64,000 nt of DNA, taken from contig DIGF01000033.1 in the NCBI GenBank assembly GCA_002419505.1, positions 12,564 through 76,563 on the forward strand, in the 5' to 3' direction. Position 1 is the stretch's first letter; each line of letters starts with the position of its first letter. A program made the translations under genes and the position numbers. Of the stretch, positions 3,001 through 46,551 are shown one piece after another. The notes under the pieces were generated by a model, which was given only the letters and a program-made list of their open reading frames with translations, did no database searches and had not been told where the DNA came from. This DNA comes from Bacillales bacterium UBA5729 (lineage in GTDB: Bacteria; Bacillota_I; Bacilli_A; Izemoplasmatales; Hujiaoplasmataceae).

Positions 3001-6000
3001 AGAAAAATATGTTAGAAGTGGTGGAGTATTAGGTGTTTCATTGTGGAGAGAAGCCGATGCTGGAGGTATAACTTCGCTAATCGGTTTAGAAGATAATATT
3101 CAAAACTCAATACTCTCTAACGGACTGAACTTTGGTAGCGTTTCAGCTATATCAAGTGTAATAGCAGAATATACCCCTACGCCTTTAAACACAAGCTTTG
3201 TTCTAAGATATGGTAGCGGAACCAGTTATTCAACTACCAGAGCAGCGACATATTATATTTCTACTGTTAATGGCAATAGTGAAAGACCACCGATATATTC
3301 AAGTGCTGGTGGGGTTATCGGTTATGGCCTAAGTGTTATGCAAAGAATGCTTAATCACGGAACCATATCTGCAACTGATGTTGCTGGTGGTGTTGTTGGA
3401 GCTACCTATGTATTAGGAAGTTCAACAACATATGTAAATATTACTACGGCGATTAATTATGGTTTAATTAAATCAATTGATTTCGATGATTTTGATTCGA
3501 TTGATAAATTTTCTCCAGATATTGAGGAAATTTCAACTTATTATATGGCTGATGGAAATACTTTCATTTATCCAACTCATGCTAACTCATTGTCTCCTGG
3601 AGCAAAAAGAGGATTCGGCGGAATCTTTGGACGTCTTCAAAGAGGTACTGATGGTATTATGACCAGCGAAGGATCAAATGCTGCATTTAACTTTATTGTT
3701 AACGCTAATGATCAAATTGATCTAATTGGCAGATTAGACCAAGTTGACAATTTCTCAAGTTCACTTAGATATTTTAGATTTAACAACGCTATATATTACT
3801 CCGCCAAAGAAGATGATAATACTCAAGCTGTTTTTACGGGAATTTATTTTCTTATTGATATTATAACTAGCCGACAAAGTATTTCTGGCGGATATTCATA
3901 CACGTATTCACAAGTAGTATTCAAACAAGTTGGAATAGTTATGTCTGAATATGAGACTTTATCTACAGGTAATACGTTTAATTCATCAACTTACTTTGCT
4001 GTGGGGGCATACTATAATGTTAATTATTATGACCAAATCGAAGTTCCATGGATTACTGAAGACCCCAACGACTCTAATTTAACTGAAGATTGGACAGATC
4101 CATTGCTAGAAGATGCAGAACGCGAATATATTTACGGACCATATTTCCCAATGAGAACTAACATTAATCTTACAGAGTACATTTACTTTGCTGAATATAA
4201 TTTATTAGCAGACAGGTTTAGAAACGTTGTTGATGGAGGAACTGGTGAAAACGTTCGTGAAAACGGTATGTATGTTTTGTCAACTACAGCTGGTCAACAA
4301 TTTGGTGCGGTTTTGCCAAGAAATATTAACCTTTCTGCAATGAAAACAATTAATGAAGATTTAGATTTGTCTATTATTAATCTAGATTATAATAACCTTG
4401 CGCCTGAACAAACCTTAAATTTAAACCAAAGTATAATTGACAAGTATGAAGATTTATATCAAACTCGTTATAACGATAAAGCAGAATTAACCAATTCGCC
4501 TTTCCAAAATTTAACTTTAAAAGAAAATGATGGCAGTGATACCATTCTTTCGTTGGGAAATATTGATTACATTAATCGAGAAATTACTTTTACAATTAGT
4601 ATGGAAGCATTTAATTTTAGTAATTATACTAATTTTGATCCTGTTACAGGCAGACCAATTGCAAGTTTCAGAGTTTTTAACGCTATAACTTCAGCCAGTT
4701 CGTTGATTGCTATAAGACCAGATGATTATTTCTCTGGTTCGCCTACTCAAACTGATTTAGAAGATTTAAGCGGATATTTGTTTGCCGAAAGATATGACCA
4801 AATATCAACAGATTATCCAGCAGAGTTGGATATCATTTTACCAGTTTACAATATATCAAGTAATACAACTTTATCTTTGGGATACTTCAGCGTTTTCTCT
4901 GAAGCTTTTATCAATGATCCAATCTTTGCAGACGCTTTCTATTACAACGACTATCAAGTATATATCACTTTCACACCTAACGCTTCGCAAACATCAGGTA
5001 CAATTGGTATTCAATCAGTATCTTTTAATGGTGGTGGGAATGTTACTTTAGGATCTTATACAAATCCTCAACCATTGGCTATTGATATTAGAAGTAATGG
5101 TGATGTCAATTACAATGGTAGTTTAAGGCTTAACTTCAATGACGGTAAAGGTATTTTGAATCAAGGATATGATTTTAAAGATTATTTTAAACTTTACTAT
5201 ATGGATGGAACAAACGAAGTAGAAGTTCATAATGATTATTACTCAGTAACTTCAGTTCCTGTCAATAGTTCAGGCATTTATCAAATAACCTTTAACTTTA
5301 ATAATGCAATGCTCAAATTTGGAGATTATAAAATTAAATACAGTTATTTTGCTGCTTCGACAGTTTATGAAGTGCTTTTTGATAAAGCGGCTTCTAATCA
5401 AGCGGTAATCAGCAATTTAAATTATTACTCAATGGATAATTCATTATCAATTAGCGGAACTACTATCACCTCTTTGATAAATCTTGGTAAAATTCCTAAT
5501 ATTGATGCTAGTGCAAATAATTATACAGCTAAAACATTAGGTACATCTGATCCTAATTATGCAGTTTATTTATCAATCACAACCTACGATATCAGTTTTA
5601 TGTATAGCGATAGCTTTGTAATATCTAGTTTTGCAAATATTACTAGCGCTCGTTTGGTTAATACGACCAATAGCGGCGGATATATTACTTACGTAATTGA
5701 GTATATCGTTGTTGCAGAAAACGGCTCTACTACAAACACTTATACCCATTCAATTACCGAAAGAACCACTGATGTTATAGCTGTCAACAAAGATGGAAAC
5801 GACGTTCCTATTAATGAGATAAATACTACTAGAGAAGCAACAAACACTCAATTTGGTATTGATTTAGGTTTCGATCAAAGTTCCAATATGTCCGGTCCGG
5901 TACTATATAGCATTAATCCTTTAGATCCGGCATACTTAAGCATAAGCGTTACTGGAGTTGACCCAGATAACAATCCGTATTTACCTGAAGAAATAGTAGG

Positions 6001-7159: not shown

Positions 7160-7163
7160 TAAA

Positions 7164-9728
7164 ATGAGAAAAACACAAAGAAAAACACAAAGAAAAACAC
7201 AAAGAAAAACAAGTTTAGCAAGAAGAATAGTCAGTTTAACGGTTTTTGTTGATATGATATTCTTGTTAATAATTGCCACAACCTTCCTTTTCTATATCTT
7301 TATAAGTATCAATCAAAACAAAGCAACGGTTGTTTCTAATCAAACACAAGCAATTGTCAACTCGACCGAACAATTTTTGAATGGAATAAAAAAGGACGCT
7401 GATTTACTAGCAACCAATGAAACTGTAATTGAATATTTAAAGTATGTCAATGCAGGTAATGATCCGATTATTTTAGAAACAGATCCTAATTATCACATTT
7501 ATTATGATTTTATCTTATTAACAAACGCAATTGTTAATCATCAAAACGAGGAAGCCTATGATTTGATTTTCTTAGCCACTGAGTTTAACTGTGAAACTGC
7601 CACAGATGGCTGTGCCATAACTAATACAGGCGCGTTGTTATATGAAACTTGGTTTATTTCCGAACGACCTTGGTATGTTAATTTAGGCACAAGAGAAGCT
7701 GCTTTAACCGAACCTTATATTGATGCTTTAAGTGGAGAATATACTTTCACCTATGTAGAAAGAATTTATGACAATGAAGAGTTTATCGGTTATATTGGAA
7801 TTGATATGTCATTGTTAAGTTTGGCTGATGTCTTTGATTTAATCGATCGTGAAATCAATGGACAGATAGCTGAAATAATGATTTTCATAAATTTTGAAAC
7901 CAATCCTACTCTGGCTTTCTATAGCAAAGAAATCTATGCTGATTATTTTATGGTACCACATACTGATTTTCAAAACATTGACGATAACTTAAACTATAGC
8001 GAAAACGGTATGTATAATTTAATTAGTAGTTATGAAGAAAATCAAGTAGTAACAAACAACTTTTTTGGTACTGAGTATCTTGTCACTTATAATAATCTCG
8101 ATGACTTTGGTTGGCATTTTGTAGTTTTAGTTGATAACACAATGATGTTTTCAATGGAAATTATCTTCATTATGCTGTTAGCCGTCATTACAATACTAAT
8201 ATATTTGACAAGCCTTTTGCTAAACAAAAGAATCAAGCGTTTACTAGCTCCGATTCATACAATTATCGATTCGCTTGAAGAAATCAAAAATGGTAACTAT
8301 AGTATTAGAGTTAATTTAGTCGAAAACAATGAAATCAAAGAAATCGGTGATGCGATAAATTTAATGTCAAGAGAGATTGAAAAGCAAGTTGATTTGGTAT
8401 ATGAAACCTTTGCTTATGACAGTTTAACAGGTTTAAAGAATATTAGTGCCGCCTCATTAGATATTAATAAATATGTCTTATCTGGTAATAGAAAAACAGC
8501 AATTTGTATTTTTCAGGTTGAAAATATTAAAAATATCAATATAATTAAAGGACAGATAGTTGGGGACAATCTCTTAAAAACAATTGCTTTAGAGCTTAAA
8601 ACCATCTTGGAAAACAGTGAATATATCTACGCTAATGGTCATGATGAATTTATTTATATTATGACTGGCGTTAATTCGCTAGAGCAAGTAGAAAATAATA
8701 TCAGTAAAATTCTAGCTCATTTTAAAGAACCATTGATTGTAAAGAATATAAAACTAGAAGTGAAATTCTATATCGGTATTGCAGTATATCCTAATGATGG
8801 TAGCATCCTTGACGACTTGGTAAAAAAGAGCGACACCGCATTATATAAAGCAAAACAAACCGGCAGTAAGCGCTATTTATTCTATAACGAGAACATCGCA
8901 AGAGAGATTTCGTATAAGGCACAAATCTCAGAACAACTCGGAAAAGTTATTGATAATAAAGAACTCTACTTAAAATATCAACCACTTGTCGATAACAAAA
9001 ACGAGCTCTATGGTTTCGAAGCTTTAGTTAGGTGGAATTCCCCGATACTTGGCGAAATATCACCAAATAATTTTATCACTAATGCCGAAGAAAACTATAT
9101 GATTGTACCAATTGGTAACTACGTTTTAAAAGAAGCTTGCTTTATGCAAGTAAGAATGAAAGAACTTTTCAAGAAAGAGTTCAACATCAGCGTCAATATT
9201 TCATCTATTCAATTAATGCAATTTGATTTTGTTGAAACTGTAAAGTCTATTATCAAAGAGACTGATATCAGCGCCGAGTATTTAACCTTAGAATTAACCG
9301 AAAGTGTCTTCTTGGATTCAACAGCAATGATTGAAGAAAAGATATCAGATTTGAAAGAATTAGGAGTAAAGTTCTCGCTTGATGACTTTGGTACTGGATA
9401 TGCATCCTTAACTTATTTAAGACAAATAGCTTTCGATAACATTAAAATAGATAAAAGCTTCATTGACGGAATCTTTGGTACTGAAAATGATCACAAGATA
9501 GTTGGCACTATAGTAAACTTGGTTCATAACCTTGATATGAAGGTTATAGCTGAAGGCGTTGAATCTAAACGACAATATGAATATTTAAAACAAATAGCAA
9601 CTGACGTTTTCCAAGGTTATATGATTTCAGAACCGCTGACAGAAGAAGCTATTCAAGCATTCATTAAGTTGTTTTATAAGATTGCTAAGGCTAGACGTAT
9701 TGATGTCCTTGCAACCAAATATGAATAG
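7164..9728 (+). CDS. membrane sensor protein: TM - Cache-like extracytoplasmic domain - TM - HAMP - GGDEF (A-site NGHDEF) - EAL (intact motifs), predicted c-di-GMP phosphodiesterase
   Basis: GGAG lies 8 nt upstream of the ATG. Cache-like signature: ERPWYVNLGTREAALTEPYIDALSGEYTFTYV. A second TM is followed by a HAMP-like segment (RLLAPIHTIIDSLEEIKNGNYSIRV...IGDAINLMSREIEK). The GGDEF position reads NGHDEF (8634-8651). EAL motifs are EALVRW (9018-), NIS, ELTES, DDFGTGYAS, KIDKSF, EGVES and QGY. Confidence 0.85.
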   Translation: MRKTQRKTQRKTQRKTSLARRIVSLTVFVDMIFLLIIATTFLFYIFISINQNKATVVSNQTQAIVNSTEQFLNGIKKDADLLATNETVIEYLKYVNAGNDPIILETDPNYHIYYDFILLTNAIVNHQNEEAYDLIFLATEFNCETATDGCAITNTGALLYETWFISERPWYVNLGTREAALTEPYIDALSGEYTFTYVERIYDNEEFIGYIGIDMSLLSLADVFDLIDREINGQIAEIMIFINFETNPTLAFYSKEIYADYFMVPHTDFQNIDDNLNYSENGMYNLISSYEENQVVTNNFFGTEYLVTYNNLDDFGWHFVVLVDNTMMFSMEIIFIMLLAVITILIYLTSLLLNKRIKRLLAPIHTIIDSLEEIKNGNYSIRVNLVENNEIKEIGDAINLMSREIEKQVDLVYETFAYDSLTGLKNISAASLDINKYVLSGNRKTAICIFQVENIKNINIIKGQIVGDNLLKTIALELKTILENSEYIYANGHDEFIYIMTGVNSLEQVENNISKILAHFKEPLIVKNIKLEVKFYIGIAVYPNDGSILDDLVKKSDTALYKAKQTGSKRYLFYNENIAREISYKAQISEQLGKVIDNKELYLKYQPLVDNKNELYGFEALVRWNSPILGEISPNNFITNAEENYMIVPIGNYVLKEACFMQVRMKELFKKEFNISVNISSIQLMQFDFVETVKSIIKETDISAEYLTLELTESVFLDSTAMIEEKISDLKELGVKFSLDDFGTGYASLTYLRQIAFDNIKIDKSFIDGIFGTENDHKIVGTIVNLVHNLDMKVIAEGVESKRQYEYLKQIATDVFQGYMISEPLTEEAIQAFIKLFYKIAKARRIDVLATKYE
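7167..7211 (+). repeat. 12-nt tandem repeat (agaaaaacacaa x3 plus a 9-nt partial copy) encoding (RKTQ)n at codons 2-16 of the GGDEF-EAL gene
   Basis: Read directly: units at 7167-7178, 7179-7190 and 7191-7202 are identical, and 7203-7211 is a partial copy. The unit length is a multiple of 3, so copy-number change stays in frame. Confidence 0.9.
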
Positions 9729-9737
9729 AGGTGAATT

Positions 9738-11240
9738 ATGGTTAATTTAATTTTTCTAGCGGATCAATCCTGGAGTACAGAACCTTGGGAGGTAGTAGTT
9801 GCAATTTTAGTAATATTGCTTACCTTGGTATGTTTATTTTTCCTTTACCGCAATGTTATTTTTAATTTTAAGAAGAATCGTCTTGAAAAAGAAAAAATGC
9901 AAGAAGATTTTAAAAAACAAGATGAAAATGGCATAGATAAAGTTAACGGTGACAATATCTCAAAGCATCCTTTATTGGCTGAAATAAACAAAGACATATC
10001 AGAGATTAAAGAGGGTGAATTAAGATTATTTTTTGCAATTAATATTGATAATTTTCGCTATATAGTTGATAGTTATGAACAAAAAGATATTGATAAAATT
10101 ATTGTTGAATATCTGAAGAGACTCAAAAAGTATGGCGACAAATATTCGATTGCTGGCCATTATGAAAAAGATATGTTCATTTACTATTACAAAGGTGAAA
10201 TTGACAATGACAAAATGAATTTTATTGCTAAGGATTTGCTTGGATTAATTGCTCAACCGTTAAAACTAGGTAATCATGAACTCACTGCTTCAATTGGAGT
10301 TTGTCTTTTCCCTTATGACGGCATTACCGCTGAAAACCTACTCAAAGATGCAGAAATTGCTGTTTACGTAGCAAAAAAAGAAGGAAAAAATCGCTTTTGC
10401 ATGTATTCAGAAAACTTAATCGAAAAAGAGCAGTTTAATATTGATTATTATAAACAAATAAAGAAATCAATTGAAAACGACGAATTTCTTTTGTATTATC
10501 AACCAATCGTTGATATTAGAACTGGAAAAATCATTGGTTTAGAATCACTACTTAGATGGCAACATCCAACTATGGGAATTCTTTCGCCGGGAAAATTCTT
10601 GAATGTCATGGATTTAACCGGAGATATTACTTGGTTTGGTATTTGGGGTTTTGAAAAAGTAGCTGAACAATATAATACTTGGAAAAAAAGTATTAAATTA
10701 GGGGACTTCTTTATTTCGATAAATCTTGGTCCAAAACAACTGTTTGTAGAAGGTTTAGCAAGACAATTTTTCGAGATTACTGGAAAGCAAGGTTTAAGTC
10801 CAGAAAACTTCTGTTTAGAAATTTTAGATTATTATGTAATTACCAACAATGATATTGCTCAACACAACTTAAAAGAATTTAGACGCTACGGGTTCCGTTT
10901 GGCGATTGACGATACTGGACCTGATTTTGCGGTGGCTAATGACATGAGCAAAATCAGTGCATCTATCTTTAAACTGTCTCGAGGTAATCTTTTACTAATC
11001 AATAGCGACGATGACGATGTAGCTAAAATCGAAAGAGTTATCCAAGCCGCTAAAGCTAATCAAAAGATAGTTATTGCTGAAGGGGTTGAGGATGAAAATA
11101 TGATTAGAATTCTTAATAAATGGGATATACGCTTTATGCAAGGATATTATTTCTCCGAACCGGTATCGGTAGAAGAAGCACAAAGAATGATGCATAAATC
11201 TCCATGGAATATGAGTTCATTCAACCATTTAGTAAAGTAA
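9738..11240 (+). CDS. single-TM protein with degenerate GGDEF-like domain and partly degenerate EAL domain (candidate c-di-GMP receptor or weak PDE)
   Basis: GAGGTG RBS ahead of the ATG. N-terminal TM: VVVAILVILLTLVCLFFLY. The GGDEF position reads GHYEKDMF (10155-10178). The EAL position reads ESL (10542-10550) followed by LRW. DDTGPDF replaces DDFGTG, and KLSRGN replaces K-x-D. EGVED and QGYYFSEP are retained. Confidence 0.8.
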   Translation: MVNLIFLADQSWSTEPWEVVVAILVILLTLVCLFFLYRNVIFNFKKNRLEKEKMQEDFKKQDENGIDKVNGDNISKHPLLAEINKDISEIKEGELRLFFAINIDNFRYIVDSYEQKDIDKIIVEYLKRLKKYGDKYSIAGHYEKDMFIYYYKGEIDNDKMNFIAKDLLGLIAQPLKLGNHELTASIGVCLFPYDGITAENLLKDAEIAVYVAKKEGKNRFCMYSENLIEKEQFNIDYYKQIKKSIENDEFLLYYQPIVDIRTGKIIGLESLLRWQHPTMGILSPGKFLNVMDLTGDITWFGIWGFEKVAEQYNTWKKSIKLGDFFISINLGPKQLFVEGLARQFFEITGKQGLSPENFCLEILDYYVITNNDIAQHNLKEFRRYGFRLAIDDTGPDFAVANDMSKISASIFKLSRGNLLLINSDDDDVAKIERVIQAAKANQKIVIAEGVEDENMIRILNKWDIRFMQGYYFSEPVSVEEAQRMMHKSPWNMSSFNHLVK

Positions 11241-24359: not shown

Positions 24360-25244
24360 TTGAAAAAGAAATATGTTCGCTTAGCGAACGATGAAACCTA
24401 TGCTTACTTAGAAAAAGGTTCGGGCGATAAACACTTAATCTTAGTTCACGGCAATTTTTCTTCAGGTGTATATTACAAACCGCTTCTTGATCGTTTACCA
24501 GAAGACATTCACACCTTTGCAATTGATATGCGAGGTTTTGGTGATTCGACATATGAAAAGCCAGTGATGTCATTAAAAGATTTAGCAGATGATTTAAACC
24601 TGTTTATGAAGGCAATGAAGATTGCTGAAGCTGATATTGTTGGTTGGTCTTTAGGTGGCGGAGTGGTAATGGAATTTGCAGCTCATTATCCTGAACAAAT
24701 TACAAGTCTTGTTTTAATAGCCTCAACTACTTATAAGGGTTATCCTGTTTTTAAAAAAGGCGAGAATAACCAACCTTTAATTGGTCGGGTCTACTCATCA
24801 AGAGCAGAAATGGCCAATGACCCGATTCAAGTCAAACCTTTACTTGATGCCTTAAAAACACAAAACTTAGAATTTTTAAAGTACATTTACAACTTAACCA
24901 TCTATACTTATAACAAACCGAGTGATGAAGATAACTTACTCTATTTAACTGATTCTTTAAAGCAAAGAAACTTAGTTGACGTTGATTTTGCCCTAGCAAG
25001 TTTAAATATGGGTAAAGACCACAATCTTTATTCACCAGGACAAAACACAATAGATAAAATAAAATGCCCAGTTTTGCATGTTTGGGGATCACATGATATC
25101 ACAGTCCCTGAATACATGGTATTGGATAATTTTAAAGCTCTAGAAGATGTCTCAACTTATGTCAAATTTGATCAATGCGGACATTCACCTTTAGTAGATA
25201 AACCAGACGAATTAACAAAAGTTATTCTTGATTTTATCAAGTAG
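24360..25244 (+). CDS. alpha/beta-fold serine hydrolase
   Basis: LILVHGNFSS oxyanion region, GWSLGG nucleophile elbow and CGHSPLVDKP His motif. AAGGAG at 24345-24350 favours TTG 24360 over the adjacent TTG 24351 used in the ORF track. Confidence 0.8.
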   Translation: MKKKYVRLANDETYAYLEKGSGDKHLILVHGNFSSGVYYKPLLDRLPEDIHTFAIDMRGFGDSTYEKPVMSLKDLADDLNLFMKAMKIAEADIVGWSLGGGVVMEFAAHYPEQITSLVLIASTTYKGYPVFKKGENNQPLIGRVYSSRAEMANDPIQVKPLLDALKTQNLEFLKYIYNLTIYTYNKPSDEDNLLYLTDSLKQRNLVDVDFALASLNMGKDHNLYSPGQNTIDKIKCPVLHVWGSHDITVPEYMVLDNFKALEDVSTYVKFDQCGHSPLVDKPDELTKVILDFIK

Positions 25245-25261
25245 CTTTTTATAATTTTTTC

Positions 25262-25334
25262 TTCCTTTTATAAATGGAGCGCTTTCGTGATAATGGGGCG
25301 GAGAAAGCGCTCCGATAAAAGGGAATATTTTTTT
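25262..25334 (+). terminator. strong intrinsic terminator ending the thiolase-liv-hydrolase operon
   Basis: 11-bp perfect inner stem ggagcgctttc/gaaagcgctcc (25276-86 / 25303-13) plus a 10-bp outer stem (25262-71 / 25315-24), followed by T7 at 25328-25334. Confidence 0.85.
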
Positions 25335-25354
25335 GCCAAATTAATACAAAATGC

Positions 25355-25383
25355 TTGACAAATAGATTTGACTATAATATAAT
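25355..25383 (+). promoter_or_regulatory. sigma-A promoter of the riboswitch-led locus
   Basis: TTGACA 25355-25360, a 17-nt spacer, then TATAAT 25378-25383. A second overlapping TATAAT sits at 25373-25378. The exact TSS is uncertain relative to the proposed P1 helix. Confidence 0.6.
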
Positions 25384-25458
25384 CAACTTGTAAATAGCAA
25401 AACTAGCGAAAGTTAGTGACGCAAAGCTATAGGGCCTTCGATAGATGGTAGCCAGTTG
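25384..25458 (+). promoter_or_regulatory. c-di-GMP-I (GEMM-I) riboswitch aptamer
   Basis: GCAAAA (25397-402). Hairpin ACUAGC-GAAA-GUUAGU (25402-417) with a GNRA loop. GACGCAAAGC (25418-427). CUAU/AUAG helix (25427-30 / 25441-44). GGUAGC (25447-52). Possible P1 is CAACUUG (25384-90) pairing with CAGUUG (25453-58). The order and spacing match my memory of the GEMM-I consensus and the Vibrio Vc2 aptamer. Confidence 0.8.
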
Positions 25459-25488
25459 CCGTTATCTTTTAAAGATGAGGGCATTTTT
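25458..25488 (+). terminator. intrinsic terminator forming the riboswitch expression platform
   Basis: GCCGUUAUCU / AGAUGAGGGC stem (one G-G mismatch, one G-U pair) with a 5-nt loop, then AUUUUU (25483-88). Its 5' arm abuts the aptamer 3' end. Confidence 0.65.
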
Positions 25489-25595
25489 AATTTCTTAGGC
25501 ATTGATACCTAACTAGAAAAAAATGTACACTCACTAGGTGATGGCTTTTTTTCTATAGTAAGTCAGAAAAAGAATGGGGGGATCCGTTTGCGAAT

Positions 25596-26360
25596 ATGAG
25601 CCAAAAAGTTAAATTAGCTAGTCATATTGTAAATGCCTCTAAGGCCGCAAAAATCGCTAAAGCAAGTCGTCTTGGCATTGTCGTAAGCGCCGTCCTCGTC
25701 TTTCTAATCTTCTCGATTTCCTACTATGGGACGATGGTTGGTAATTTCACCTTCAGTGTTGACGGTTTCGCAAGAGATGCAGGCATTACCATGTATGAAT
25801 ACGCAGATAGAAAAGAGTTTAGAACAAGAATAGTTTCTGAAAAAGTTGAAGACAACCATGGAATGACAGGTTACTGTGGGACTGAGTATTATGATGGTTC
25901 CTACGGTGAGGAAGTATGTATTCCTGATGATGATGTATTAGGAGTAGATGGTCCTAACAACGGCGAATCTTACATCGCACACACATTTTATGTTGAAAAT
26001 GCCGGCGATTACATGATTGACCTAAGCGCAACGATTAATATTTTATCTGCAGTTAGAGGTGCAGAAGAAGCTCTAAGAGTACGGGTGATCATTAACGGTG
26101 TTGGAGTTACTTATGCTAAAGTTCAATCTGAAAGAGGAGTATCGCCTGGAGAATTAGAACCCTTGACAGAAAGTTTTTACAGTATTGATAAAGTCTTTTA
26201 CCAAGAATTTCTAGAAATGGATGTTGGAGAATTTATCAAAGTTACAGTGGTTGTATGGTATGAAGGAACAGACGCCGATCATACAAATGATTTATTTGGA
26301 GGCGGAATAAAATTAGACATGAAATTTTCAGTCACAAATGTTTACAAAGATAGGCTTTAA
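25596..26360 (+). CDS. TasA/camelysin (M73)-like protein, paralog 1, with an N-terminal signal-anchor
   Basis: N-terminal TM then GTMVGNFTFSV (compare the SipW-type G-T-x-A-x-F-x-D region). FYVENAGDYMIDL strand motif. C-terminal NDLFGGGIKLDMKFSV resembles the TasA ..NKYQGNSIKLQFSFEA ending. Confidence 0.65.
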   Translation: MSQKVKLASHIVNASKAAKIAKASRLGIVVSAVLVFLIFSISYYGTMVGNFTFSVDGFARDAGITMYEYADRKEFRTRIVSEKVEDNHGMTGYCGTEYYDGSYGEEVCIPDDDVLGVDGPNNGESYIAHTFYVENAGDYMIDLSATINILSAVRGAEEALRVRVIINGVGVTYAKVQSERGVSPGELEPLTESFYSIDKVFYQEFLEMDVGEFIKVTVVVWYEGTDADHTNDLFGGGIKLDMKFSVTNVYKDRL

Positions 26361-26418: not shown

Positions 26419-27363
26419 ATGAAAAATTTAAGAAACAAAGTGATTCTTTCAGGAATCGTATTACTATTTGCGTTTATCGCAACAATTGGTTCGACTTATG
26501 CATGGTTTACAGTTTCATCAACGGCTACAGTCAGTGAGATAACATTAAACGTTCAAGCTGAAGAAAACTTGTTGATAAAAATTGTACCATATAATGAAGG
26601 ATCAGGGACTTTTGCGCCTGATTATAGTCTAAACCCTGCAGGATATCAATCTGCAGTTACGCTTGCGCAATTACAAACAGCTGGATATTTGCCTACTGGA
26701 ACCCCTTGGAGATTATTGCCTTCAACAGTTTTTGCAACAGATGAAGCTACTCATGATGATATCAACGAAAGGGTACTCCACTATCTTGGAGATCCTACCG
26801 ACAGTTTAAGAACTTTAGTAGCTGCTCCATTTAATAACGGATCAAGTGGTAGATATGTTCAACTTCAATTCATTGTTATGCAGCAATCAGACATTCCTCA
26901 AGCTCTTGAAATGAGAACAATTAGAATTTCCGCTTCTTATGGTGTTGGAGATGCTAGAAATAACATTGCTGAAGCAGTTAGGTTATCTGTATGGGGAGAT
27001 GACACGGGTTATCTTGGTCATGACACAGAATACACTCCTTTAATTGGAGCTCCTTTAACCTTTGGTAGAGACTCGGATTTTGCTTATTCTTTTGCTGGAA
27101 GAACAGGTTTTACATTTACCAATTTGGATACTATAGCTCAAATTCGTGATGGAATATCCCCACTATATCCAACAGTTATTGATATATATGATGGTTCTTC
27201 ATGGGTTGATCCAGTTCAAGATGTATTCATTTTACAACCGAATGCTCCTACATTAATTACCGTTAATATTTACATAGAAGGTTGGGATGAACAAGCAGAT
27301 AACTACATTATTGGTGCTGAATTTGATATTTCATTCGCCTTCACAATTGGAAGTATTGATTAA
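26419..27363 (+). CDS. TasA/camelysin (M73)-like secreted protein, paralog 2 (likely major subunit)
   Basis: AAAGGAG RBS. The signal peptide ends in IGSTYAWFTVSSTATVSEITLNV (camelysin: GGTFAYFSD...GTLDL). The C-terminus is IYIEGWDEQADNYIIGAEFDISFAFTI. It is followed by a strong hairpin. Confidence 0.7.
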   Translation: MKNLRNKVILSGIVLLFAFIATIGSTYAWFTVSSTATVSEITLNVQAEENLLIKIVPYNEGSGTFAPDYSLNPAGYQSAVTLAQLQTAGYLPTGTPWRLLPSTVFATDEATHDDINERVLHYLGDPTDSLRTLVAAPFNNGSSGRYVQLQFIVMQQSDIPQALEMRTIRISASYGVGDARNNIAEAVRLSVWGDDTGYLGHDTEYTPLIGAPLTFGRDSDFAYSFAGRTGFTFTNLDTIAQIRDGISPLYPTVIDIYDGSSWVDPVQDVFILQPNAPTLITVNIYIEGWDEQADNYIIGAEFDISFAFTIGSID

Positions 27364-27570: not shown

Positions 27571-28272
27571 ATGATGAAAATCGCATTACACAAAGACAAG
27601 GTAAAAAAAATATTAAATATTACTTTTTACGTTGTGATATTTATTGTTTTTGTATACGCAATATTTGGGCTTTTTTCTAAAAAAGAAGGTAACTCTATTT
27701 CTTTTTTAGGTATAACGTCAATGTCAGTACAATCTGGATCAATGTCACCTACTTTTGAAGAAGGAGATTTGATCTTCGTTAAAACTGACTTTAATCCTAG
27801 AGACTTAGTCGAAGGTGATGTTATCACTTACCAAGATTTTAGAATGACAGAAAACGGAATTGTATCCTATTATAACACTCATAGAATTGAAGATATTGAT
27901 AAGAGTGGTACGGTATGGCGATTTATTACCAAAGGTGATGCTAATGCCGAAAATGATCCAAGACAATTATTAGAAAACGAAATCTATGGTGTTTGGACTG
28001 AAAGGTCATGGGCAAAATTTGGTGGTTTCATTGATAATTTTACTAACTTTTTAAAATCAAGTTTGGGATTTTTCCTATTTATTGTTGTGCCATGTTTGGC
28101 TTTACTAGTTTATGAAGTTATTAAATTTATGAAAGTTTATGCAGAATATAACGTTCAAAAACATACCCATGACAGAGTTAAGATGCAAGAAGAAGCGTTA
28201 GCTCAAGCTAGAGCACAACTCGAAGCGGAAGCGAAATCCAAGGCGGATGGTGTAGAACCGAAAAAAGAATGA
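27571..28272 (+). CDS. sipW: signal peptidase I, ER/archaeal type (SipW-like), copy 1
   Basis: GAGGAG RBS. N-terminal TM, catalytic box QSGSMSPTF, His box NTHRIEDI and KGDANAEND box. A C-terminal TM plus a charged tail, as in SipW. Confidence 0.85.
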   Translation: MMKIALHKDKVKKILNITFYVVIFIVFVYAIFGLFSKKEGNSISFLGITSMSVQSGSMSPTFEEGDLIFVKTDFNPRDLVEGDVITYQDFRMTENGIVSYYNTHRIEDIDKSGTVWRFITKGDANAENDPRQLLENEIYGVWTERSWAKFGGFIDNFTNFLKSSLGFFLFIVVPCLALLVYEVIKFMKVYAEYNVQKHTHDRVKMQEEALAQARAQLEAEAKSKADGVEPKKE

Positions 28273-28307: not shown

Positions 28308-29948
28308 ATGAAAGAATTTTCAGCGTTTTACGTTGACCTTTTTATCGAGATATGGAATGATATAGTATTTTTCTTTAGAGATGCTATTTGGAATAATATA
28401 ATAAAACAATTCTTTAGAAACGTAATCTCATACTGGAATCTTTTAATGGAAGATTCCGTTTTGTACGAGTTTAATACTTTATCATGGATTATGGTTGTGG
28501 TGGCCGCCCTTCTCAACATTACCTTAATCATTTTTATCGTTTTAAGAATCTATTTATGGATTAAAAAATATCTTTCTTTTAGAAGAATTGAAATTGAAAA
28601 GAATGAACTTATCGAAGAAATCGCCGAACTAAATGAAAAAGTTATCGATTTAATCGATGAAAAGAATCAAATATTAGCTATGAAAGTTAGTCAATTAGGA
28701 ATTAATGCCAGAACTGGTGAAAGCGGAGAAGTTTATTATGCAAATGCAAATAAGCCAGGTTTACAACCAGCCTTTGGACAAGCCGGTACAGGTGGAGTTA
28801 ACTCTGGAGTTGTACCACTCAGTTCAGGCGATGGTTCTAGTCCGATAAATCCTGCTGGACCATCAAGATTCGTTAAATTAATTCAAGTTGATAAAGAATA
28901 TGCTGGTAAAGACACTCATATTTATATGGAAGATAGTGATTATGTCGCCTTACCAGAACTAGTAACGAGATTTGTTAATTTCGCCGCTTCACAGTTAAAG
29001 TTATACTATACACCAAGAATGGTTTCTTATTTCTTTGCTGGTATGGCTGCTTCAAAAATTATTATTCTAGAAGGTATCTCCGGTACAGGGAAAACCTCAT
29101 TACCATATGCTATGGGTAAGTTTTTCGATAATCCAGCTGCGATGATTTCAGTTCAACCGGCTTGGCGTGACCGCGCGGAAATCTTAGGATACTTAAATGA
29201 GTTTACTAAAAGATTTAATGAAACTGATTTCTTAAAGAACCTCTATGAAGCAATTTATAGAAAAGATGTAAATTTAATTGTTTTAGATGAGTTAAACCTT
29301 GCGAGAATTGAGTACTATTTCGCTGAGTTTTTATCAATCATGGAAATGCCAGATCCAAATGAATGGAAAATTGACCTTGTCCCAGATTCAAAACCATCTG
29401 ATCCGTTAAAAGTAATTAATGGAAAAATAACTGTTCCACTTAACATTTGGTTTGTTGGTACTGCAAATAAAGATGACTCAACATTTACGATTACTGATAA
29501 GGTTTATGACCGTGCTATCTCATTAGAATTTGACTCTAAAGGTGAATATTTCCAAGCGCCAGATACTAAGCCAATTCACATTTCTAGCGCTTACTTACAA
29601 GAGTTATTCGATGAAGCTTATTATAAGTTCCCAATTAGTGAAGAAACACTTAATAACTTTAAAATCTTAGACAAGTATATTCAAGCGCATTTTAGAATCG
29701 CTTTTGGTAATAGAATCATGACTCAAGTTTATAAGTTTATTCCAGTTTATGTTGCCTGTGGTGGTACTGAACTTGACGGCTTAGATTATATCTTCGCTTA
29801 TAAAGTTTTACGTAAATTTGAGAGTTTAAATTTGGCATTTTTGCAAAATGAACTTAACGAATTAATTAATCAAATTAAAAAGATTTTTGGTAAGAACAGC
29901 TTTGAAGAATCGATTAATTTTATTAAAAACCTACAAAAATTAGTTTAG
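28308..29948 (+). CDS. membrane-anchored McrB-like AAA+ (AAA_5 clade) NTPase
   Basis: TM at about 28479-28566 followed by KKYLSFRR, then a coiled coil, then a Gly/Pro-rich linker. Walker A is GISGTGKTS (29073-29099). VQPAWRDRAEILGYLN. Walker B/sensor block is LIVLDELNLARIEYYFAEFLSIME (29274-29339). WFVGTAN. Confidence 0.75.
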   Translation: MKEFSAFYVDLFIEIWNDIVFFFRDAIWNNIIKQFFRNVISYWNLLMEDSVLYEFNTLSWIMVVVAALLNITLIIFIVLRIYLWIKKYLSFRRIEIEKNELIEEIAELNEKVIDLIDEKNQILAMKVSQLGINARTGESGEVYYANANKPGLQPAFGQAGTGGVNSGVVPLSSGDGSSPINPAGPSRFVKLIQVDKEYAGKDTHIYMEDSDYVALPELVTRFVNFAASQLKLYYTPRMVSYFFAGMAASKIIILEGISGTGKTSLPYAMGKFFDNPAAMISVQPAWRDRAEILGYLNEFTKRFNETDFLKNLYEAIYRKDVNLIVLDELNLARIEYYFAEFLSIMEMPDPNEWKIDLVPDSKPSDPLKVINGKITVPLNIWFVGTANKDDSTFTITDKVYDRAISLEFDSKGEYFQAPDTKPIHISSAYLQELFDEAYYKFPISEETLNNFKILDKYIQAHFRIAFGNRIMTQVYKFIPVYVACGGTELDGLDYIFAYKVLRKFESLNLAFLQNELNELINQIKKIFGKNSFEESINFIKNLQKLV

Positions 29949-29958: not shown

Positions 29959-31500
29959 ATGGATGAAGGAACCGCTAAACGTTATTACAAAAAAATTAAT
30001 ACGACTTTTCAAGGTGTAAATAAGCTTGATGATTTCGCCAAGCAGTATTTAAACCTTCTTGAAAGTTCAAAAATTGAACTTTATCAAAAAGAAAGACGAG
30101 AAAGAAGAATCTTTGATGATTCATGGTTGTCTAATATTGAAGGAATTTTACCAATACTTGATAAACTTACTAGAAATCCAAAAGAAAGCTTAAAGAAAGT
30201 AACTGAAGTTGTGCCTGTAGAACGAGCGAAAAAAATTGATTCAGGTACAATTAGACACTTAGCAGCTAACACACAGTTAATTAAAAAAACCAATAATAAA
30301 GGCGAAATTCAACCTTCTAAATTACTTACAAGTTTTTCTGAATCAGAACTAGGAACCTATGAAAACAGATTTTTAATGACCTTAGTTGACAAGATTTTTA
30401 CATTTATTGAGATTAGATATAAACTCATCAATCGGAAGATGAATACTGAATATGTTAATTTCTTGAAAGTAAATTCAGAAATTGAGTATCAAAGTGCATT
30501 AATTCATTATGATATTACTTTAAAAATTAATCGTAATATGGAGGAAGATGCTGTTTGTAAAAAAAATCAAGAATTATTTGATCGAATGAAAGATTTAAGA
30601 GATGGTATTAGAAACTATAAAAACTCTTCTTTCATGAGGCAGATGTCAGGCTTTCCACCAATTAGACCACCAATTATGAAAACCAATATTATTATGAAGA
30701 ATATTGAATTCATTCAATGTTATGATTTGTGGATGTTTATGGATACAGTCGATAGAGTTGGGTATGAAGTAGATGTATTTGAACGTGACGTTAAATTTGA
30801 TGAAGAGTATATTCGTCAAATTGAAAACACAATGTTAGTCCTTTATGCTACAGTAGCTAATAATCAAACTGAAGAATTCTCTTTATCTCATGAAAATCCT
30901 TTTACATATCGTAAAGTAAAAACACCAAGAGTTCTTACAAAAGTTGACGAAGACAGATATTTAGAATCAGCGGAATTCTTGATTAAAGATGAAACTTTAA
31001 ACCAATATTTCCTAGAACAAATCAGAAAAGATAACGTCGAAAGATATAATACACTTATTGAAGCTGGAATTCCTAAGGATAAAAGCATAGATATAATCCA
31101 TCGAAAACTTTTGGAAATCGCTGATGGAGCTTTTAAAGACTTTATCAATTACACTTTCAACCCTGAAATTGAGAAAGATTTAAATAAAAAAATAGATGTT
31201 CAAAACGAAATTTTAAAAGTATATCGAGATATTGAAAAAGTTAAACGCGAAAACATTAAAGATTTAGAAACAGAAAAAGCTCTTGCTTTATTAGCTCTCA
31301 ATAACTATCGAGAAGAATTAAACAATAGAATCGCTAAACAAAAAGCGGACATAGAAGCTAAAAAAGCGGAAGAAAGAAGATTAAAGCTTCAAAGACAAAA
31401 AGCTATTGCTCAAGAACGCGCAGCAAAAAAGAAGAAAATCGATCGTGCAAAAGAATTGTTAGAAAAAGCTGAAAGAGCTAGAAAATTACAAAATAAATAA
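29959..31500 (+). CDS. soluble partner protein of unknown family with a Lys/Glu-rich C-terminal coiled coil
   Basis: Starts 10 nt after the AAA+ gene with a GGAGGT RBS. No TM. The C-terminal ~110 aa are heptad-like and highly charged (KQKADIEAKKAEERRLKLQRQKAIAQERAAKKKK...). I could find no nuclease motif. Confidence 0.7.
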   Translation: MDEGTAKRYYKKINTTFQGVNKLDDFAKQYLNLLESSKIELYQKERRERRIFDDSWLSNIEGILPILDKLTRNPKESLKKVTEVVPVERAKKIDSGTIRHLAANTQLIKKTNNKGEIQPSKLLTSFSESELGTYENRFLMTLVDKIFTFIEIRYKLINRKMNTEYVNFLKVNSEIEYQSALIHYDITLKINRNMEEDAVCKKNQELFDRMKDLRDGIRNYKNSSFMRQMSGFPPIRPPIMKTNIIMKNIEFIQCYDLWMFMDTVDRVGYEVDVFERDVKFDEEYIRQIENTMLVLYATVANNQTEEFSLSHENPFTYRKVKTPRVLTKVDEDRYLESAEFLIKDETLNQYFLEQIRKDNVERYNTLIEAGIPKDKSIDIIHRKLLEIADGAFKDFINYTFNPEIEKDLNKKIDVQNEILKVYRDIEKVKRENIKDLETEKALALLALNNYREELNNRIAKQKADIEAKKAEERRLKLQRQKAIAQERAAKKKKIDRAKELLEKAERARKLQNK

Positions 31501-31528
31501 TAGAAATTTAAAAAAAGAGGTGATGGAA

Positions 31529-32119
31529 ATGAAAAAACGGTTTATGCTATCGCTAACAGCGTTAATAGCATCTGCTGCTTTATTTGTTATTGCCTCTTTT
31601 GCTTGGTTTGTTTTAAGCACTTATTCACCTGTTGACACTATTCCTGGAGGAACCAAGGGGGTATTATATGATTTAGGTGGAGAGTTTATAATTGGAAGTG
31701 TTATTTATCCTGAACTTGAACTTTTAAGCGAAGATATATCAATCACGAGCTATTCAACAGAAAGTCTATATTTAAGAATTAAGATAGTATATTTAAGAAT
31801 TAATGTTAATTATATTGATTCAGAGTATGTAGTTTCATCTCCCACAATAGACATATATAGTGACAATTTTAATGATGAACATTTATCAGTAATCCTTAAT
31901 TCAAATTTCTTTTATGAGAGCGATGAGTATTGGTATTATGACGAATTAATTTATGGTGATTCTGTTACACACACCTTAATAACTTCGCTTTATTATGATG
32001 GTTTCAAAGCTAGTAACGAGTATGCCACTGAACCTTTAAGCATAAGCATAATTCTTGAAGTAAGCACTGGTGAAGATGGTGTATGGGATCCGCTCACTAC
32101 CTTAACCACAACCACGTAG
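31529..32119 (+). CDS. TasA/camelysin-like secreted protein, paralog 3 (small)
   Basis: GAGGTG lies 6 nt upstream of ATG 31529. The signal peptide ends IASFAWFVLST. The C-terminal NEYATEPLSISIILEV resembles the family ending. Thr-rich tail. Confidence 0.6.
   Translation: MKKRFMLSLTALIASAALFVIASFAWFVLSTYSPVDTIPGGTKGVLYDLGGEFIIGSVIYPELELLSEDISITSYSTESLYLRIKIVYLRINVNYIDSEYVVSSPTIDIYSDNFNDEHLSVILNSNFFYESDEYWYYDELIYGDSVTHTLITSLYYDGFKASNEYATEPLSISIILEVSTGEDGVWDPLTTLTTTT
31767..31803 (+). repeat. 21-nt-period direct repeat (tatatttaagaattaa x2) inside paralog 3
   Basis: 31767-31782 and 31788-31803 are identical. They encode LYLRIKI / VYLRINV. Confidence 0.8.
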
Positions 32120-32135
32120 TATAAATAGGAGTAAA

Positions 32136-32744
32136 ATGAAAACTGTCTTAAAGAAAGTAATATTTGCTTTGCCGTTTGTATTTATCGGTTTGGCCATGAT
32201 AATGATGGTTCAGTTAGGTATCTCATTGAAAAACAATGAAGTACCTAATATTTTTAATCGCGCCATGTTATACGTTAAAACACCATCAATGGAAGATACG
32301 ATTATGGCTGGAGACTTAATTTTTATCAATGTTAAAGACAGAGACTTCTATGAAGAAGATATCATTAGTTTTAGAAGACCTGATAAACCGGAGATAATTA
32401 TTACCCACAGAATTGTAAATATAGATGGTGATTTAATTACCACAAAAGGAGATAACAACTACACCTCAGAAACCTGGGAAATAAACTTTTCTAAGGATTT
32501 TGTTTTGGGTTCTTATGTAGGGAAATCAAGTTTATTAGGGTCTGTTTACGAAGTTTTATTTTTAAACAGTTTAAATGTTTTGTTTGGACTGATTACTGTC
32601 GTGTTTTTGCTTATTGGGGTAATTGAAATGAGAAATATTATTAAACTGCTTTCTCAGAAAAAAGCAGCTGAAATTGAAGCGGAAAAGCAACAAATGATTG
32701 AAGAATATAAAGAAAAAATAAAAAGTGAGAAGGAACAAAAATGA
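32136..32744 (+). CDS. sipW: signal peptidase I, ER/archaeal type (SipW-like), copy 2
   Basis: N-terminal TM, Ser box KTPSMEDTI, His box ITHRIVNI, TKGDNNYTSE box, and a C-terminal TM plus a charged tail. Confidence 0.85.
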   Translation: MKTVLKKVIFALPFVFIGLAMIMMVQLGISLKNNEVPNIFNRAMLYVKTPSMEDTIMAGDLIFINVKDRDFYEEDIISFRRPDKPEIIITHRIVNIDGDLITTKGDNNYTSETWEINFSKDFVLGSYVGKSSLLGSVYEVLFLNSLNVLFGLITVVFLLIGVIEMRNIIKLLSQKKAAEIEAEKQQMIEEYKEKIKSEKEQK

Positions 32745-33532
32745 GAGCAATCATCCTAGCAAGCGGCTCACAAGCTAATGTTACTTATTTAGAAATTGGT
32801 GAGAGTAAAATTTTAATCGACTGTGGCTTAAGCTATAGACAAATCGTTTATCGTTTAAAAGAACATAATAAAAATCTCGATAACTTAAACGCAGTTTTCA
32901 TCACTCATGAACACGCTGATCACGTTGCGGGTTTGAGAGTGTTAGCTAAAAATCACAAGATGAAAATTGTCCTTAGCGAAGGCACTTATCAAGGGTTAAA
33001 TAAAAGGTTTTTAGGTGAGATCGATGAAGAATTATTTCTGATAGTCAAGAGCTTGGAAAGCTTTGAATTTGGTGATTTTCAAGTTTTGCCTTTTGCAACT
33101 TATCACGACGCAGTTGAACCTTTCGGCTATCGCTTTATTGAAGAAAATCGATCATTGGTATATATGACTGACACCGGATATTTCCCAATTAAATACTATG
33201 AATATCTAAAAGATGCGGATTGCTATATCGTCGAAAGTAACCATGAAGTGGAAATGCTTTTAGAGAGTGCGAGACCTTGGCTTTTAAAAAGGAGAATTCT
33301 AGATGATGAAGGTCATTTGTCAAATGAAGATAGTGCGAATTTAATTTTAAATCTTGTTGGTGAAAGAACTAAACAAATCGTTTTAGCACATCTCTCTCAA
33401 GAATGCAATTTAGAGAGAGTAGCTTTAGAAACATATGAAAAAGTTTTCCTAGAACAAGGCATAGATATTAAGAATTATCGAATTTGTGCAGCTAATCAAA
33501 ATCATTCAACTGATGAAATCATTATTGAATGA
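32741..33532 (+). CDS. MBL-fold metallo-hydrolase (YycJ/WalJ-like)
   Basis: ITHEHADHVAG (HxHxDH) motif. About 263 aa. Its ATG overlaps the sipW-2 TGA (ATGA). Confidence 0.85.
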   Translation: MRAIILASGSQANVTYLEIGESKILIDCGLSYRQIVYRLKEHNKNLDNLNAVFITHEHADHVAGLRVLAKNHKMKIVLSEGTYQGLNKRFLGEIDEELFLIVKSLESFEFGDFQVLPFATYHDAVEPFGYRFIEENRSLVYMTDTGYFPIKYYEYLKDADCYIVESNHEVEMLLESARPWLLKRRILDDEGHLSNEDSANLILNLVGERTKQIVLAHLSQECNLERVALETYEKVFLEQGIDIKNYRICAANQNHSTDEIIIE

Positions 33533-46490: not shown

Positions 46491-46551
46491 ACTAAACATA
46501 TTTAATTTTTAATTCGTTTATGTTAAAATGTATCAAAGGTGGTGTAGTGAT

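Follow-up and report, generated by a model that had tools for sequence, protein, structure and literature searches.

We describe a riboswitch of the cyclic di-GMP-I (c-di-GMP-I, also GEMM-I) family in a stretch of DNA from the Izemoplasmatales bacterium UBA5729 (contig DIGF01000033.1). The stretch is 64 kb long and is called the window here; all positions follow its numbering, and all features of the riboswitch and of the operon behind it lie on the + strand. On a reading that we hold with moderate confidence, the element lies in the 5′ leader of an operon conserved among Izemoplasmatales and switches its transcription ON. The leader is arranged in the order promoter, aptamer, terminator T1 and gene, and the expression platform overlaps the aptamer at positions 25457-25460. 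While the riboswitch class is ordinary, its expression platform is unusual and its target is interesting.

A scan of the whole window against Rfam 15 (cmscan) yielded a single match above gathering score, to RF01051 at 25386-25463 (64.1 bits, where the gathering threshold is 35 bits; E = 3.2e-10; model positions 1-87). The transcribed part of the aptamer probably spans 25390-25465. A first-pass annotation of this DNA had already placed the RNA in the GEMM-I class and had proposed the Rfam comparison as a check; the covariation and folding analyses below agree with that assignment. Homologs of the protein encoded by the first gene, open reading frame (ORF) 1, were collected from one genome per species and are listed as 80 loci (L001-L080), comprising Izemoplasmatales loci L001-L056 with ORF1 identities of 48-82% and loci L057-L080 from gut Clostridia and Bacilli with identities of about 30%. 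A riboswitch precedes the ORF1 homolog at the same distance in all 48 Izemoplasmatales loci that have at least 270 nucleotides (nt) of flanking sequence, and the aptamer, promoter and terminator are all retained at each of these 48. The homologous aptamers score 55-69 bits on Rfam, including those of two gut loci (L062 and L068), and the remaining 22 gut loci show no Rfam riboswitch match.

An alignment of 49 leaders, read with the Rfam-derived structure, was used to count base pairs in the aptamer and in T1. Within the aptamer helices 98.2% of cells hold standard pairs, and five pairs exhibit double changes. The covariation score of the aptamer is 0.167, compared with 0.106 for shuffled alignments (none of 500 reach the observed value) and 0.001-0.044 when the pairing partners are slid relative to each other. 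Membership in the c-di-GMP-I riboswitch family is therefore almost certain. A chance resemblance, or a decayed aptamer that no longer functions, could be argued only from an atypical tetraloop-receptor sequence and a short P3. The E value of 3e-10, the presence of the element in 48 of 48 loci down to 48% ORF1 identity, and the covariation already refute that explanation, whose probability we regard as negligible.

The secondary structure consists of two hairpins and their junctions. P2 (ACUAGC-GAAA-GUUAGU, 25402-25417) is capped by the GNRA tetraloop GAAA at 25408-25411, and four of its six pairs are compensatory among homologs. It is followed by the junction GACGCAA (25418-25424), invariant among homologs, whose GC at 25421-25422 pairs with GC at 25397-25398. 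P3 (25425-25457) is built from a base AGCU/AGUU, then GG/CC and GCC.UC/GA.GGU, and ends in the loop GAUA; its distal UA pair is replaced by CG and AU in homologs, and the loop itself varies, reading GAAA, GCAA or GUAA or being longer. All 49 leaders share, without change, the junction nucleotides GCAAA, GACGCAAAG and GCC. The tetraloop receptor segment, CCUUCG...AGAUGG with a conserved U-U opposition, resembles the canonical 11-nt receptor (CCUAAG...UAUGG) but differs from it. A second helix CUAU/AUAG, proposed in the first-pass annotation, finds no place in this structure, as AUAG (25441-25444) falls in the variable P3 loop. A short P1 between GUAA (25390-25393) and UUAU (25462-25465) is possible and pairs in 97% of cells; covariation neither backs nor refutes it because both strands are invariant.

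Transcription appears to begin at the first conserved nucleotide of the RNA. The promoter is of the sigma-70 type with 12 of 12 consensus matches, namely a -35 hexamer TTGACA at 25355-25360 and, after a 17-nt spacer, a -10 hexamer TATAAT at 25378-25383, exactly as the first-pass annotation had read it; every string that it quoted is indeed present where it was placed. When the 60 nt upstream of about 48 leaders were aligned, TTGACA was unchanged at a constant distance and the -10 box read TATAAT or TATACT in the same column. Six unconserved nucleotides follow the -10 box, and then an invariant G(U)AAA. Since conservation of the RNA starts exactly at G25390, 7 nt past the -10 box, and the boxes occupy fixed columns, this G is the likely transcription start site (TSS) to judge from the alignment.

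The position of the TSS also bears on an inconsistency that the first-pass annotation had recognized between a start at about 25390 and its own closing helix, CAACUUG (25384-25390) with CAGUUG (25453-25458). The homolog alignment upholds the start and removes the helix: its 5′ half precedes the likely TSS, is different in nearly all homologs and does not covary, while CAGUUG forms the base of P3 by pairing with AAGCUA inside the aptamer. Like CUAU/AUAG, these are complementary strings rather than helices. As a separate observation, the promoter spacer contains a second hexamer, TTGACT (25370-25375, in the context cTTGACTAT), which is kept in many homologous promoters and might bind a regulator or act as an alternative -35 box.

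The ten nucleotides immediately after P3, GCCGUUAUCU (25458-25467), are invariant in the 49 leaders and form what we call the switch strand S. The GCC that opens S (25458-25460) includes C25459, the equivalent of ligand-contact residue C92 in the Vc2 aptamer, and UUAU at 25462-25465 is the strand that would form the short P1. The same ten nucleotides are also the 5′ arm of T1 (25457-25488), which is composed of S, a loop, AAGAUGAGGGC (25472-25482), an A and the U-tract UUUUU (25484-25488). RNAfold pairs S with AGAUGAGGGC (25473-25482) in a stem GCCG.UUAUCUU/AAGAUGA.GGGC followed by AUUUUU. This hairpin alone has a predicted energy of -13.4 kcal/mol, and 98.1% of its cells are paired in the 49 leaders. 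The first-pass annotation had indeed described an intrinsic terminator at 25458-25488 directly after the aptamer and deduced transcriptional control from it, and the hairpin predicted by RNAfold, its retention in homologs, the covariance model score and the covariation among leaders sustain both claims. The first start codon was also placed correctly, 108 nt past 25488, where ORF1 starts at 25596. A pattern-based terminator scan of 24800-26000 found none, and it missed T1 because its rule disallows a G-G mismatch.

T1 uses U25457 to C25460, that is, the last pair of P3 and the GCC of the ligand pocket. Because both structures take these nucleotides, T1 and a binding-competent aptamer exclude each other. 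When the aptamer and its pocket were enforced in folding, only a 7-base-pair (bp) AU-rich stem remained, 5 nt away from the U-tract, and no stem adjoined either this U-tract or a second one further downstream. This arrangement makes ON logic likely.

The opposite logic was weighed with the same nucleotides. In an OFF switch, the 3′ strand of P3 (GAU.AGAUGGUA, 25440-25450) would pair with S and its 5′ neighbour (UUGCCGUUAUC, 25457-25467) in ligand-free RNA as an anti-terminator, and ligand would stabilize P3 and release UUAUCUU for termination. Such a hairpin is the RNAfold minimum free energy (MFE) structure for transcripts ending at 25464-25476, and its 7-bp core is the MFE in 28 of 48 homologous truncated leaders. 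The version AGAUGG:UUAUCU pairs in 96% of cells. However, GCC 25458-25460 is needed by both terminators and is yet occupied in the ligand-bound aptamer, so the OFF model is not self-consistent, as ligand binding and both terminators compete for one GCC. Moreover, three outer pairs of the hairpin rely on the variable P3 loop, and changes to P3 in three homologs (L014, L016 and L023) are compensated within P3 and not in S. T1, at -13.4 kcal/mol, can start from a toehold of 5 free nucleotides and displace the alternative hairpin. The AGAUGG:UUAUCU register, raised in the first-pass annotation as a weak anti-terminator, is worth just -0.4 kcal/mol, lacks covariation and is broken in homologs with a changed P3, and so it was dropped. 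We consider an OFF switch improbable.

An ON switch is further suggested by a second hairpin, T2, that appears to depend on the same strand. Downstream of T1 lies an arm, AGGUGAUGGC (25536-25545), which is complementary to S and is followed by seven U residues (25546-25552). Together with S it would close a hairpin of 25458-25545 that encloses T1 and, with its U7, spans about 95 nt. The upper stem of this structure is formed by an A-tract with UGUACACUCAC (25515-25534), which pairs with the first U-tract and the 3′ arm of T1, and its tip is a cap hairpin UAGG....CCUA (25496-25511). The sequence from S to the second U-tract folds as one hairpin of -25.9 kcal/mol (z = -3.68; 0 of 200 shuffles reach it). 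The duplex of S with the second arm is worth -12.7 kcal/mol, compared with -4.5 kcal/mol for the hairpin that the second arm can form locally. An autonomous local second terminator, at -4.5 against -25.9 kcal/mol for the long form, is not what folding predicts for the window.

The evidence for T2 across homologs comes from folding of individual sequences, from duplex energies set against shuffled and in-leader controls, and from an anchored reading of compensatory changes. The second arm with its U-tract is conserved in an alignment of 47 leaders, and the dual hairpin-plus-U-tract layout is kept in about 45 loci. Across loci, S and the second arm form a continuous duplex of 9-11 bp with energies of -9 to -13.8 kcal/mol, while shuffled arms average about -5 kcal/mol. 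This duplex is part of the MFE at 43 of 50 loci, and it also appears in the MFE of the complete leader from the window. The second arm is the best complement of S within the leader at 44 of the 50. Variation in the arm consists solely of A-to-G exchanges, in either direction, opposite U residues of S, and U is kept opposite A25464 and G opposite C residues.

Compensation is also seen in the upper stem of T2, where the T1 tail and the A-tract region change together: GGGC-A-UUUU occurs with AAAAUG, GGGC-GC-UUUU with AAAGCG, GGGC-GA-UUUU with AAAUCG (L049), and GGGC-G-UUUU with AAACG (L043 and L047) or AAAUG. In three loci (L015, L017 and L019) there are three successive units of arm plus U-tract, all complementary to S, and the MFE structure is a hairpin of even greater length in which S pairs with the final arm. 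From these comparisons we lean, by a little, towards a second terminator T2 that depends on S.

There is precedent for a more ordinary arrangement, in which T2 would be an independent second terminator, or a hairpin that stabilizes or processes the RNA, the likeness of the arms would reflect duplication, and the riboswitch would control T1 only. The two terminators of Bc1, a c-di-GMP riboswitch of the Bacillus thuringiensis/cereus group, are independent, lie 28 bp apart, and the second is insensitive to c-di-GMP (PMC11218506). Some homologs here have a stable local T2 hairpin, and the hairpin is flanked by an A-tract, as bidirectional terminators are. In most loci, however, the local hairpin is worth only -2.5 to -8.5 kcal/mol, with much of this from pairing of the A-tract with the U-tract. 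Internal positions of the arm that are looped out in the local hairpin never bear a base that mismatches S, the long hairpin is the MFE in 43 of 50 loci, and the tail of T1 changes in a compensatory way with the A-tract region. We judge the independent arrangement unlikely.

An ON switch with two checkpoints is favoured because S is the 5′ arm of T1 and also the base of T2. The second terminator and the ON logic implied by this overlap had escaped the first-pass annotation, as had the variant ligand contact described below. Since S holds both the short P1 strand and the C at the C92 position, which would base-pair with the ligand, the ligand-bound aptamer and either terminator would be mutually exclusive. 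In the absence of ligand, S would be free and polymerase would terminate at T1, releasing a transcript of about 99 nt. Any polymerase that reads past T1 would be stopped at T2 after about 163 nt, with pairing between the first U-tract and the A-tract seeding a strand exchange that frees S from the T1 arm. With ligand bound, S would be locked in the pocket and the short P1, leaving no stem base beside the U-tracts, and the operon would be transcribed. A single binding event would have to last for about 90 nt of transcription. That one 10-nt strand serves two nested terminators (three in some species), downstream of an aptamer with a variant ligand contact and upstream of a CoCoPALM operon (both described below), is a combination that we put forward tentatively. 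No described riboswitch with a nested double checkpoint on one switch strand was found in the literature searched, where Bc1 is the sole studied case with dual terminators.

A further feature of the leader lies downstream of the terminators. The region 25560-25595 contains a G-rich run resembling a Shine-Dalgarno sequence, GGGGGGAU, whose distance from the AUG (about 13-20 nt) is unusually large. It is conserved along with UUGCG.UAUG, and RNAfold pairs part of it locally.

The identity of the ligand is bound up with one residue. The equivalents of Vc2 ligand contacts A47 and C92 are A25423 and C25459, both invariant in 49 homologs. Model position 11 in the cmscan alignments, which is unpaired and lies immediately 5′ of the GC whose partner is GACGC, is presumably G20 of Vc2 by counting along the Vc2 sequence, which is consistent with PMC6140456. 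Where a G would be expected, making a Hoogsteen contact to one guanine of c-di-GMP, the window has A25396 (hereafter A20). Among the 49 homologs this base is A in 45 and G in four (L029, L035, L039 and L042).

Natural A20 RNAs are known, and A20 is thus compatible with membership in the structural family. The Vc2 G20A mutant binds both c-di-GMP and 3′3′-cyclic GMP-AMP (cGAMP), as does the clostridial A20 variant Cbe 1-2, and A20 RNAs take c-di-GMP by means of a protonated adenine (PMC6140456). According to the same source, A20 is a hallmark of Geobacter cGAMP riboswitches, the Geobacter GEMM-Ib RNAs that bear it prefer cGAMP, and natural A20 RNAs range from the cGAMP-selective Gs1761 to the bispecific Cbe 1-2. 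Because A20 RNAs extend from cGAMP-preferring to bispecific, sequence alone does not fix the ligand.

Genomic context points to c-di-GMP as the physiological ligand, a prediction in which we have good confidence because of EAL-domain proteins in the window and canonical G20 paralogs in related genomes. The EAL domains belong to two adjoining genes 14-18 kb upstream of the riboswitch, both recognized by Pfam. They encode a dCache-HAMP-GGDEF-EAL protein (7146-9728, +) and a GGDEF-EAL protein (9735-11240, +), in which the EAL domains are strong, with EAL and ESL motifs, and the GGDEF motifs are degenerate (GHDEF and EKDMF). From these motifs, both proteins are probably c-di-GMP phosphodiesterases. 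A regular-expression search of the window for GGDEF motifs missed both genes because the motifs are degenerate. Two gut Clostridia metagenome-assembled genomes (L062, 1213-4612; L068, 497-2076) have a c-di-GMP-I riboswitch, then a gene for a 246-residue EAL protein, then the ORF1 homolog; in L062 an intact dCache-HAMP-GGDEF cyclase gene stands directly upstream.

A sensor of the GEMM-Ib type, whose physiological ligand is 3′3′-cGAMP or cGAMP and c-di-GMP alike, is the other possibility. It draws on A25396 at the G20 position, on the A in 45 of 49 homologs, and on the ability of the G20-to-A change to make Vc2 accept cGAMP, with A20 occurring naturally in Geobacter RNAs and in Cbe 1-2 (PMC6140456). 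Yet A20 RNAs retain c-di-GMP binding through the protonated adenine, the window encodes EAL-domain proteins of the c-di-GMP phosphodiesterase family, and genes for GGDEF and EAL proteins are linked to the operon in its distant homologs. Neither the 64-kb window nor about 500 kb of related loci showed a cGAMP synthase (Hypr-GGDEF or DncV-like CD-NTase), and the known Hypr-GGDEF enzymes that make cGAMP are mainly deltaproteobacterial. Finally, the complete genome of strain zrk2 (CP076020) has paralogous copies of the operon, one under an A20 leader (L041) and one under a G20 leader (L042), an assignment with which the model alignment agrees. On balance, a cGAMP-dedicated or evenly bispecific sensor seems rather unlikely.

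The two zrk2 aptamers lie at 3779-3858 (L041) and 3716-3798 (L042), and the A20 copy has a U-tract terminator. Leaders of the G20 type are built differently. The first hairpin on S is without a U-tract in L029, L035 and L042 (GGCGUGUA...), though not in L039. In the same three leaders, and partly in L039, a second S-complementary arm GGGUAAUGGC is followed by a clean third terminator, GCCAAAAC...GUUUUGGC plus a U-tract. The logic of G20-type leaders may differ from that of the A20 type.

Several considerations weigh against an ON switch that responds to c-di-GMP through two shared-strand terminators. All mechanistic statements about the riboswitch are computational. A20 marks GEMM-Ib RNAs that sense cGAMP or are bispecific, and no active cyclase is seen in this 64-kb genome fragment, where both GGDEF domains are degenerate. 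Ligand-free folding up to S favours a GAUGGUA:UUGCCGU hairpin over P3 at 28 of 48 loci, and this hairpin could in principle be an anti-terminator, or could be a kinetic modulator. A long-range terminator stem is unusual, and in Bc1, the one studied c-di-GMP riboswitch with two terminators, the second is ligand-independent and masks the response (PMC11218506).

The case for T2 is accordingly weaker than the case for the aptamer, because RNAalifold gave T1 only, S never varies, and a few loci have a competent local T2. RNAalifold was applied to a MAFFT alignment from S to the second U-tract, and it recovered T1 only because the variable middle is misaligned; the per-sequence and anchored methods were chosen for this reason, and covariation in the upper stem was judged by eye on anchored sequences. 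Because neither S nor the 5′ GUAAA varies, P1 and the pairings of S with the arms can show no covariation on the S side. A good local T2 hairpin is found in a few loci (for example -14.7 kcal/mol in L031 and L037, about -12 kcal/mol in L025 and L026), and the duplex of S with the second arm is missing from the MFE at seven loci.

The operon downstream of the leader appears to encode a surface structure and its assembly factors. ORF1 (25596-26360, +) specifies a membrane-anchored protein of 254 residues that is assigned to no family and whose ectodomain is a beta-sandwich (model pLDDT, the predicted local distance difference test, 82). It has about 100 close homologs, nearly all from metagenome-assembled or complete genomes of Candidatus Izemoplasmatales or Mycoplasmatota. 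In the PDB its fold is matched best, though weakly, by AbpA, a bundling pilin of archaea (7ueg; E = 1.3e-3, probability 0.96, template modelling [TM] score 0.26-0.32). ORF2 (26419-27363, +) specifies a 314-residue secreted protein with a SipW-type signal (..GSTYAWFT..; model pLDDT 79). It matches the TasA fibre (8aur), AbpA (7ueg) and a Sulfolobus thread filament (7pnb) weakly, all three being built from donor-strand filament subunits; all these fold matches of ORF1 and ORF2 have E > 1e-3 and TM scores of at most 0.4. Peptidase_M73 (PF12389, the camelysin/TasA family) matches 3 of 46 ORF2 homologs weakly, with a best E of 8.8e-4. ORF2 may be considered a candidate TasA-like fibre subunit. Searching the PDB sequences with a profile of ORF2 homologs returned nothing, and Pfam, NCBIfam, PHROGs and PADLOC gave no match for ORF1, ORF2 or ORF6.

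ORF2 evolves much faster than its neighbours: its identity is 35-40% at loci where that of ORF1 is about 75% and that of the AAA+ protein is near 87%. It occurs in one to three tandem copies; both its rapid evolution and its copy number are as expected for an exposed major subunit. A protein identical to ORF2 is present on contigs of hydrocarbon and oil-sands-tailings metagenomes.

The next gene (27571-28272, +) encodes a SipW-type, archaeal-type signal peptidase I (TIGR02228, 93.3 bits against a cut-off of 51.85; SipW model E = 4e-28). It is followed by genes for a membrane-anchored, coiled-coil McrB-like AAA+ protein (28308-29948, +; PADLOC PDC-M26A, 1.9e-36; McrB 6hz4, E = 0.013; a weak AAA_5 match), which is the most conserved of the cluster, and for a McrC-like DUF2357 protein with a C-terminal coiled coil (29959-31500, +; PF09823, E = 2e-8). 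DUF2357 is the N-terminal domain of McrC (PMC11090510). At 31520-32744 (+) are ORF6, a second protein of 199 residues resembling a SipW substrate, and a second SipW-like peptidase of 202 residues whose TIGR02228 score of 48.4 bits is just under the cut-off. ORF6, like ORF2, has a SipW-type signal as read from its translation.

The gene order ORF1, ORF2 (one to three copies), SipW-type peptidase, AAA+ and DUF2357 is conserved across Izemoplasmatales, and gut Clostridia and Bacilli loci have the same genes rearranged. The product of the operon is presumably a surface fibre or pilus. c-di-GMP usually promotes attachment, which fits such an output.

The locus has the components that characterize CoCoPALM systems: a McrB-like AAA+ protein, a DUF2357 McrC homolog with a coiled coil, and a SipW-type peptidase. 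An NKDD motif in the AAA+ protein is compatible with the NxD signature, though ambiguous, and the membrane helix and heptad segments were read from the translations. CoCoPALM was named by Bell et al. (2024) for McrB-like GTPases with an FtsB-like membrane and coiled-coil N-terminus that occur with coiled-coil McrC homologs and with signal peptidases, supposed to be pilus-assembly factors (PMC11090510). Those authors deferred the analysis of CoCoPALM and made no mention of c-di-GMP or riboswitches (PMC11090510). Our literature search found no follow-up study of CoCoPALM. A search for c-di-GMP riboswitches together with TasA or SipW gave no top-ranked paper containing the riboswitch term, and one for Izemoplasma with c-di-GMP gave no results.

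Other genes in the window merit brief description. Directly upstream of the EAL genes, an ORF of at least 2385 residues (2-7159, +) is cut by the window edge; its sole Pfam match is a lamin-tail domain, and it is possibly a giant surface protein. The start of a gene for a metallo-beta-lactamase-fold hydrolase (32741-33532, +) overlaps the stop of the second SipW-like gene, and its product has sub-threshold similarity to the Apyc1 family, which degrades cyclic nucleotides, and to a model of cyclic-nucleotide phosphodiesterases. The gene at 46513-46875 (+; PF06153, E = 8e-37) encodes a member of the c-di-AMP receptor family, and the organism therefore also has components of c-di-AMP signalling. 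A weak ComK-like ORF is located at 48756-49190.

The aptamer itself adds little, being a high-scoring RF01051 member of a textbook class. Its distribution indicates that free-living, wall-less Mycoplasmatota of the order Izemoplasmatales use riboswitch control by a cyclic dinucleotide, in the form of a conserved regulator of one operon at 48 of 48 loci. If confirmed, the interesting parts would be the shared-strand T2, the A20 contact and the CoCoPALM target. Nested terminators on one strand would give a tighter OFF state and demand long ligand residence, properties that may be useful for riboswitch engineering. A cyclic dinucleotide would be the first known input signal of CoCoPALM and would imply a role in surface fibres rather than defence in wall-less bacteria. 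An ON switch driven by c-di-GMP also offers a testable hypothesis for CoCoPALM function, in attachment or fibre assembly, and a means of induction. The paralogous A20 and G20 leaders of zrk2, in a single complete genome, constitute a natural experiment on ligand selectivity.

Comparison with known systems places the operon beside CoCoPALM, with which it shares a McrB-like AAA+ protein whose N-terminus carries a membrane helix and a coiled coil, a DUF2357 protein, two SipW-type peptidases and secreted proteins with SipW signals. Its relation to the TasA/SipW fibre operons comes from weak fold and profile matches. The aptamer resembles Vc2 and RF01051 in its two hairpins, the GAAA loop on the first of them, the GCAAA and GACGCAAAGC junctions, and the GCC tail with its C92 equivalent. 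It differs from Vc2 in having A at the G20 contact, a short P3 with its own GNRA loop and a non-canonical receptor, and a P1 of at most 4 bp, made of AU and GU pairs, that starts at the predicted +1.

Among RNAs with A at the G20 equivalent are the GEMM-Ib riboswitches Gs1761 and pilM (Geobacter metallireducens). The pilM riboswitch is a transcriptional ON switch that controls pilus genes and in which aptamer and terminator are mutually exclusive (PMC9262584). The present RNA shares this exclusivity, and its window for binding before the terminator is complete, about 20-25 nt, is similar to the 25 nt reported for pilM. Unlike the GEMM-Ib systems, it has two terminators rather than one, and its host belongs to the Mycoplasmatota, has EAL genes and is not known to have a cGAMP synthase. 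Cbe 1-2 from Clostridium beijerinckii is a natural A20 GEMM-I aptamer of the Firmicutes lineage with a different sequence, platform and gene context; by analogy with it, binding of both ligands is the most likely behaviour of the present aptamer.

Cd1, from the flgB leader of Clostridioides difficile, is likewise a transcriptional c-di-GMP-I riboswitch of the Firmicutes lineage without a stable P1 (PMC9262584). However, Cd1 works as an OFF switch and represses flagella; its terminator is placed further downstream than here and can form alongside the aptamer (PMC9262584). The closest precedent for the platform is Bc1, which also joins one aptamer to a long platform with two hairpins that end in U-tracts, a layout that its authors call rarely seen (PMC11218506). 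Whereas T1 and T2 of Bc1 are separate local hairpins, here the second hairpin encloses the first, and some homologs have three arms. Because its base is the same switch strand, T2 is predicted here to be ligand-dependent.

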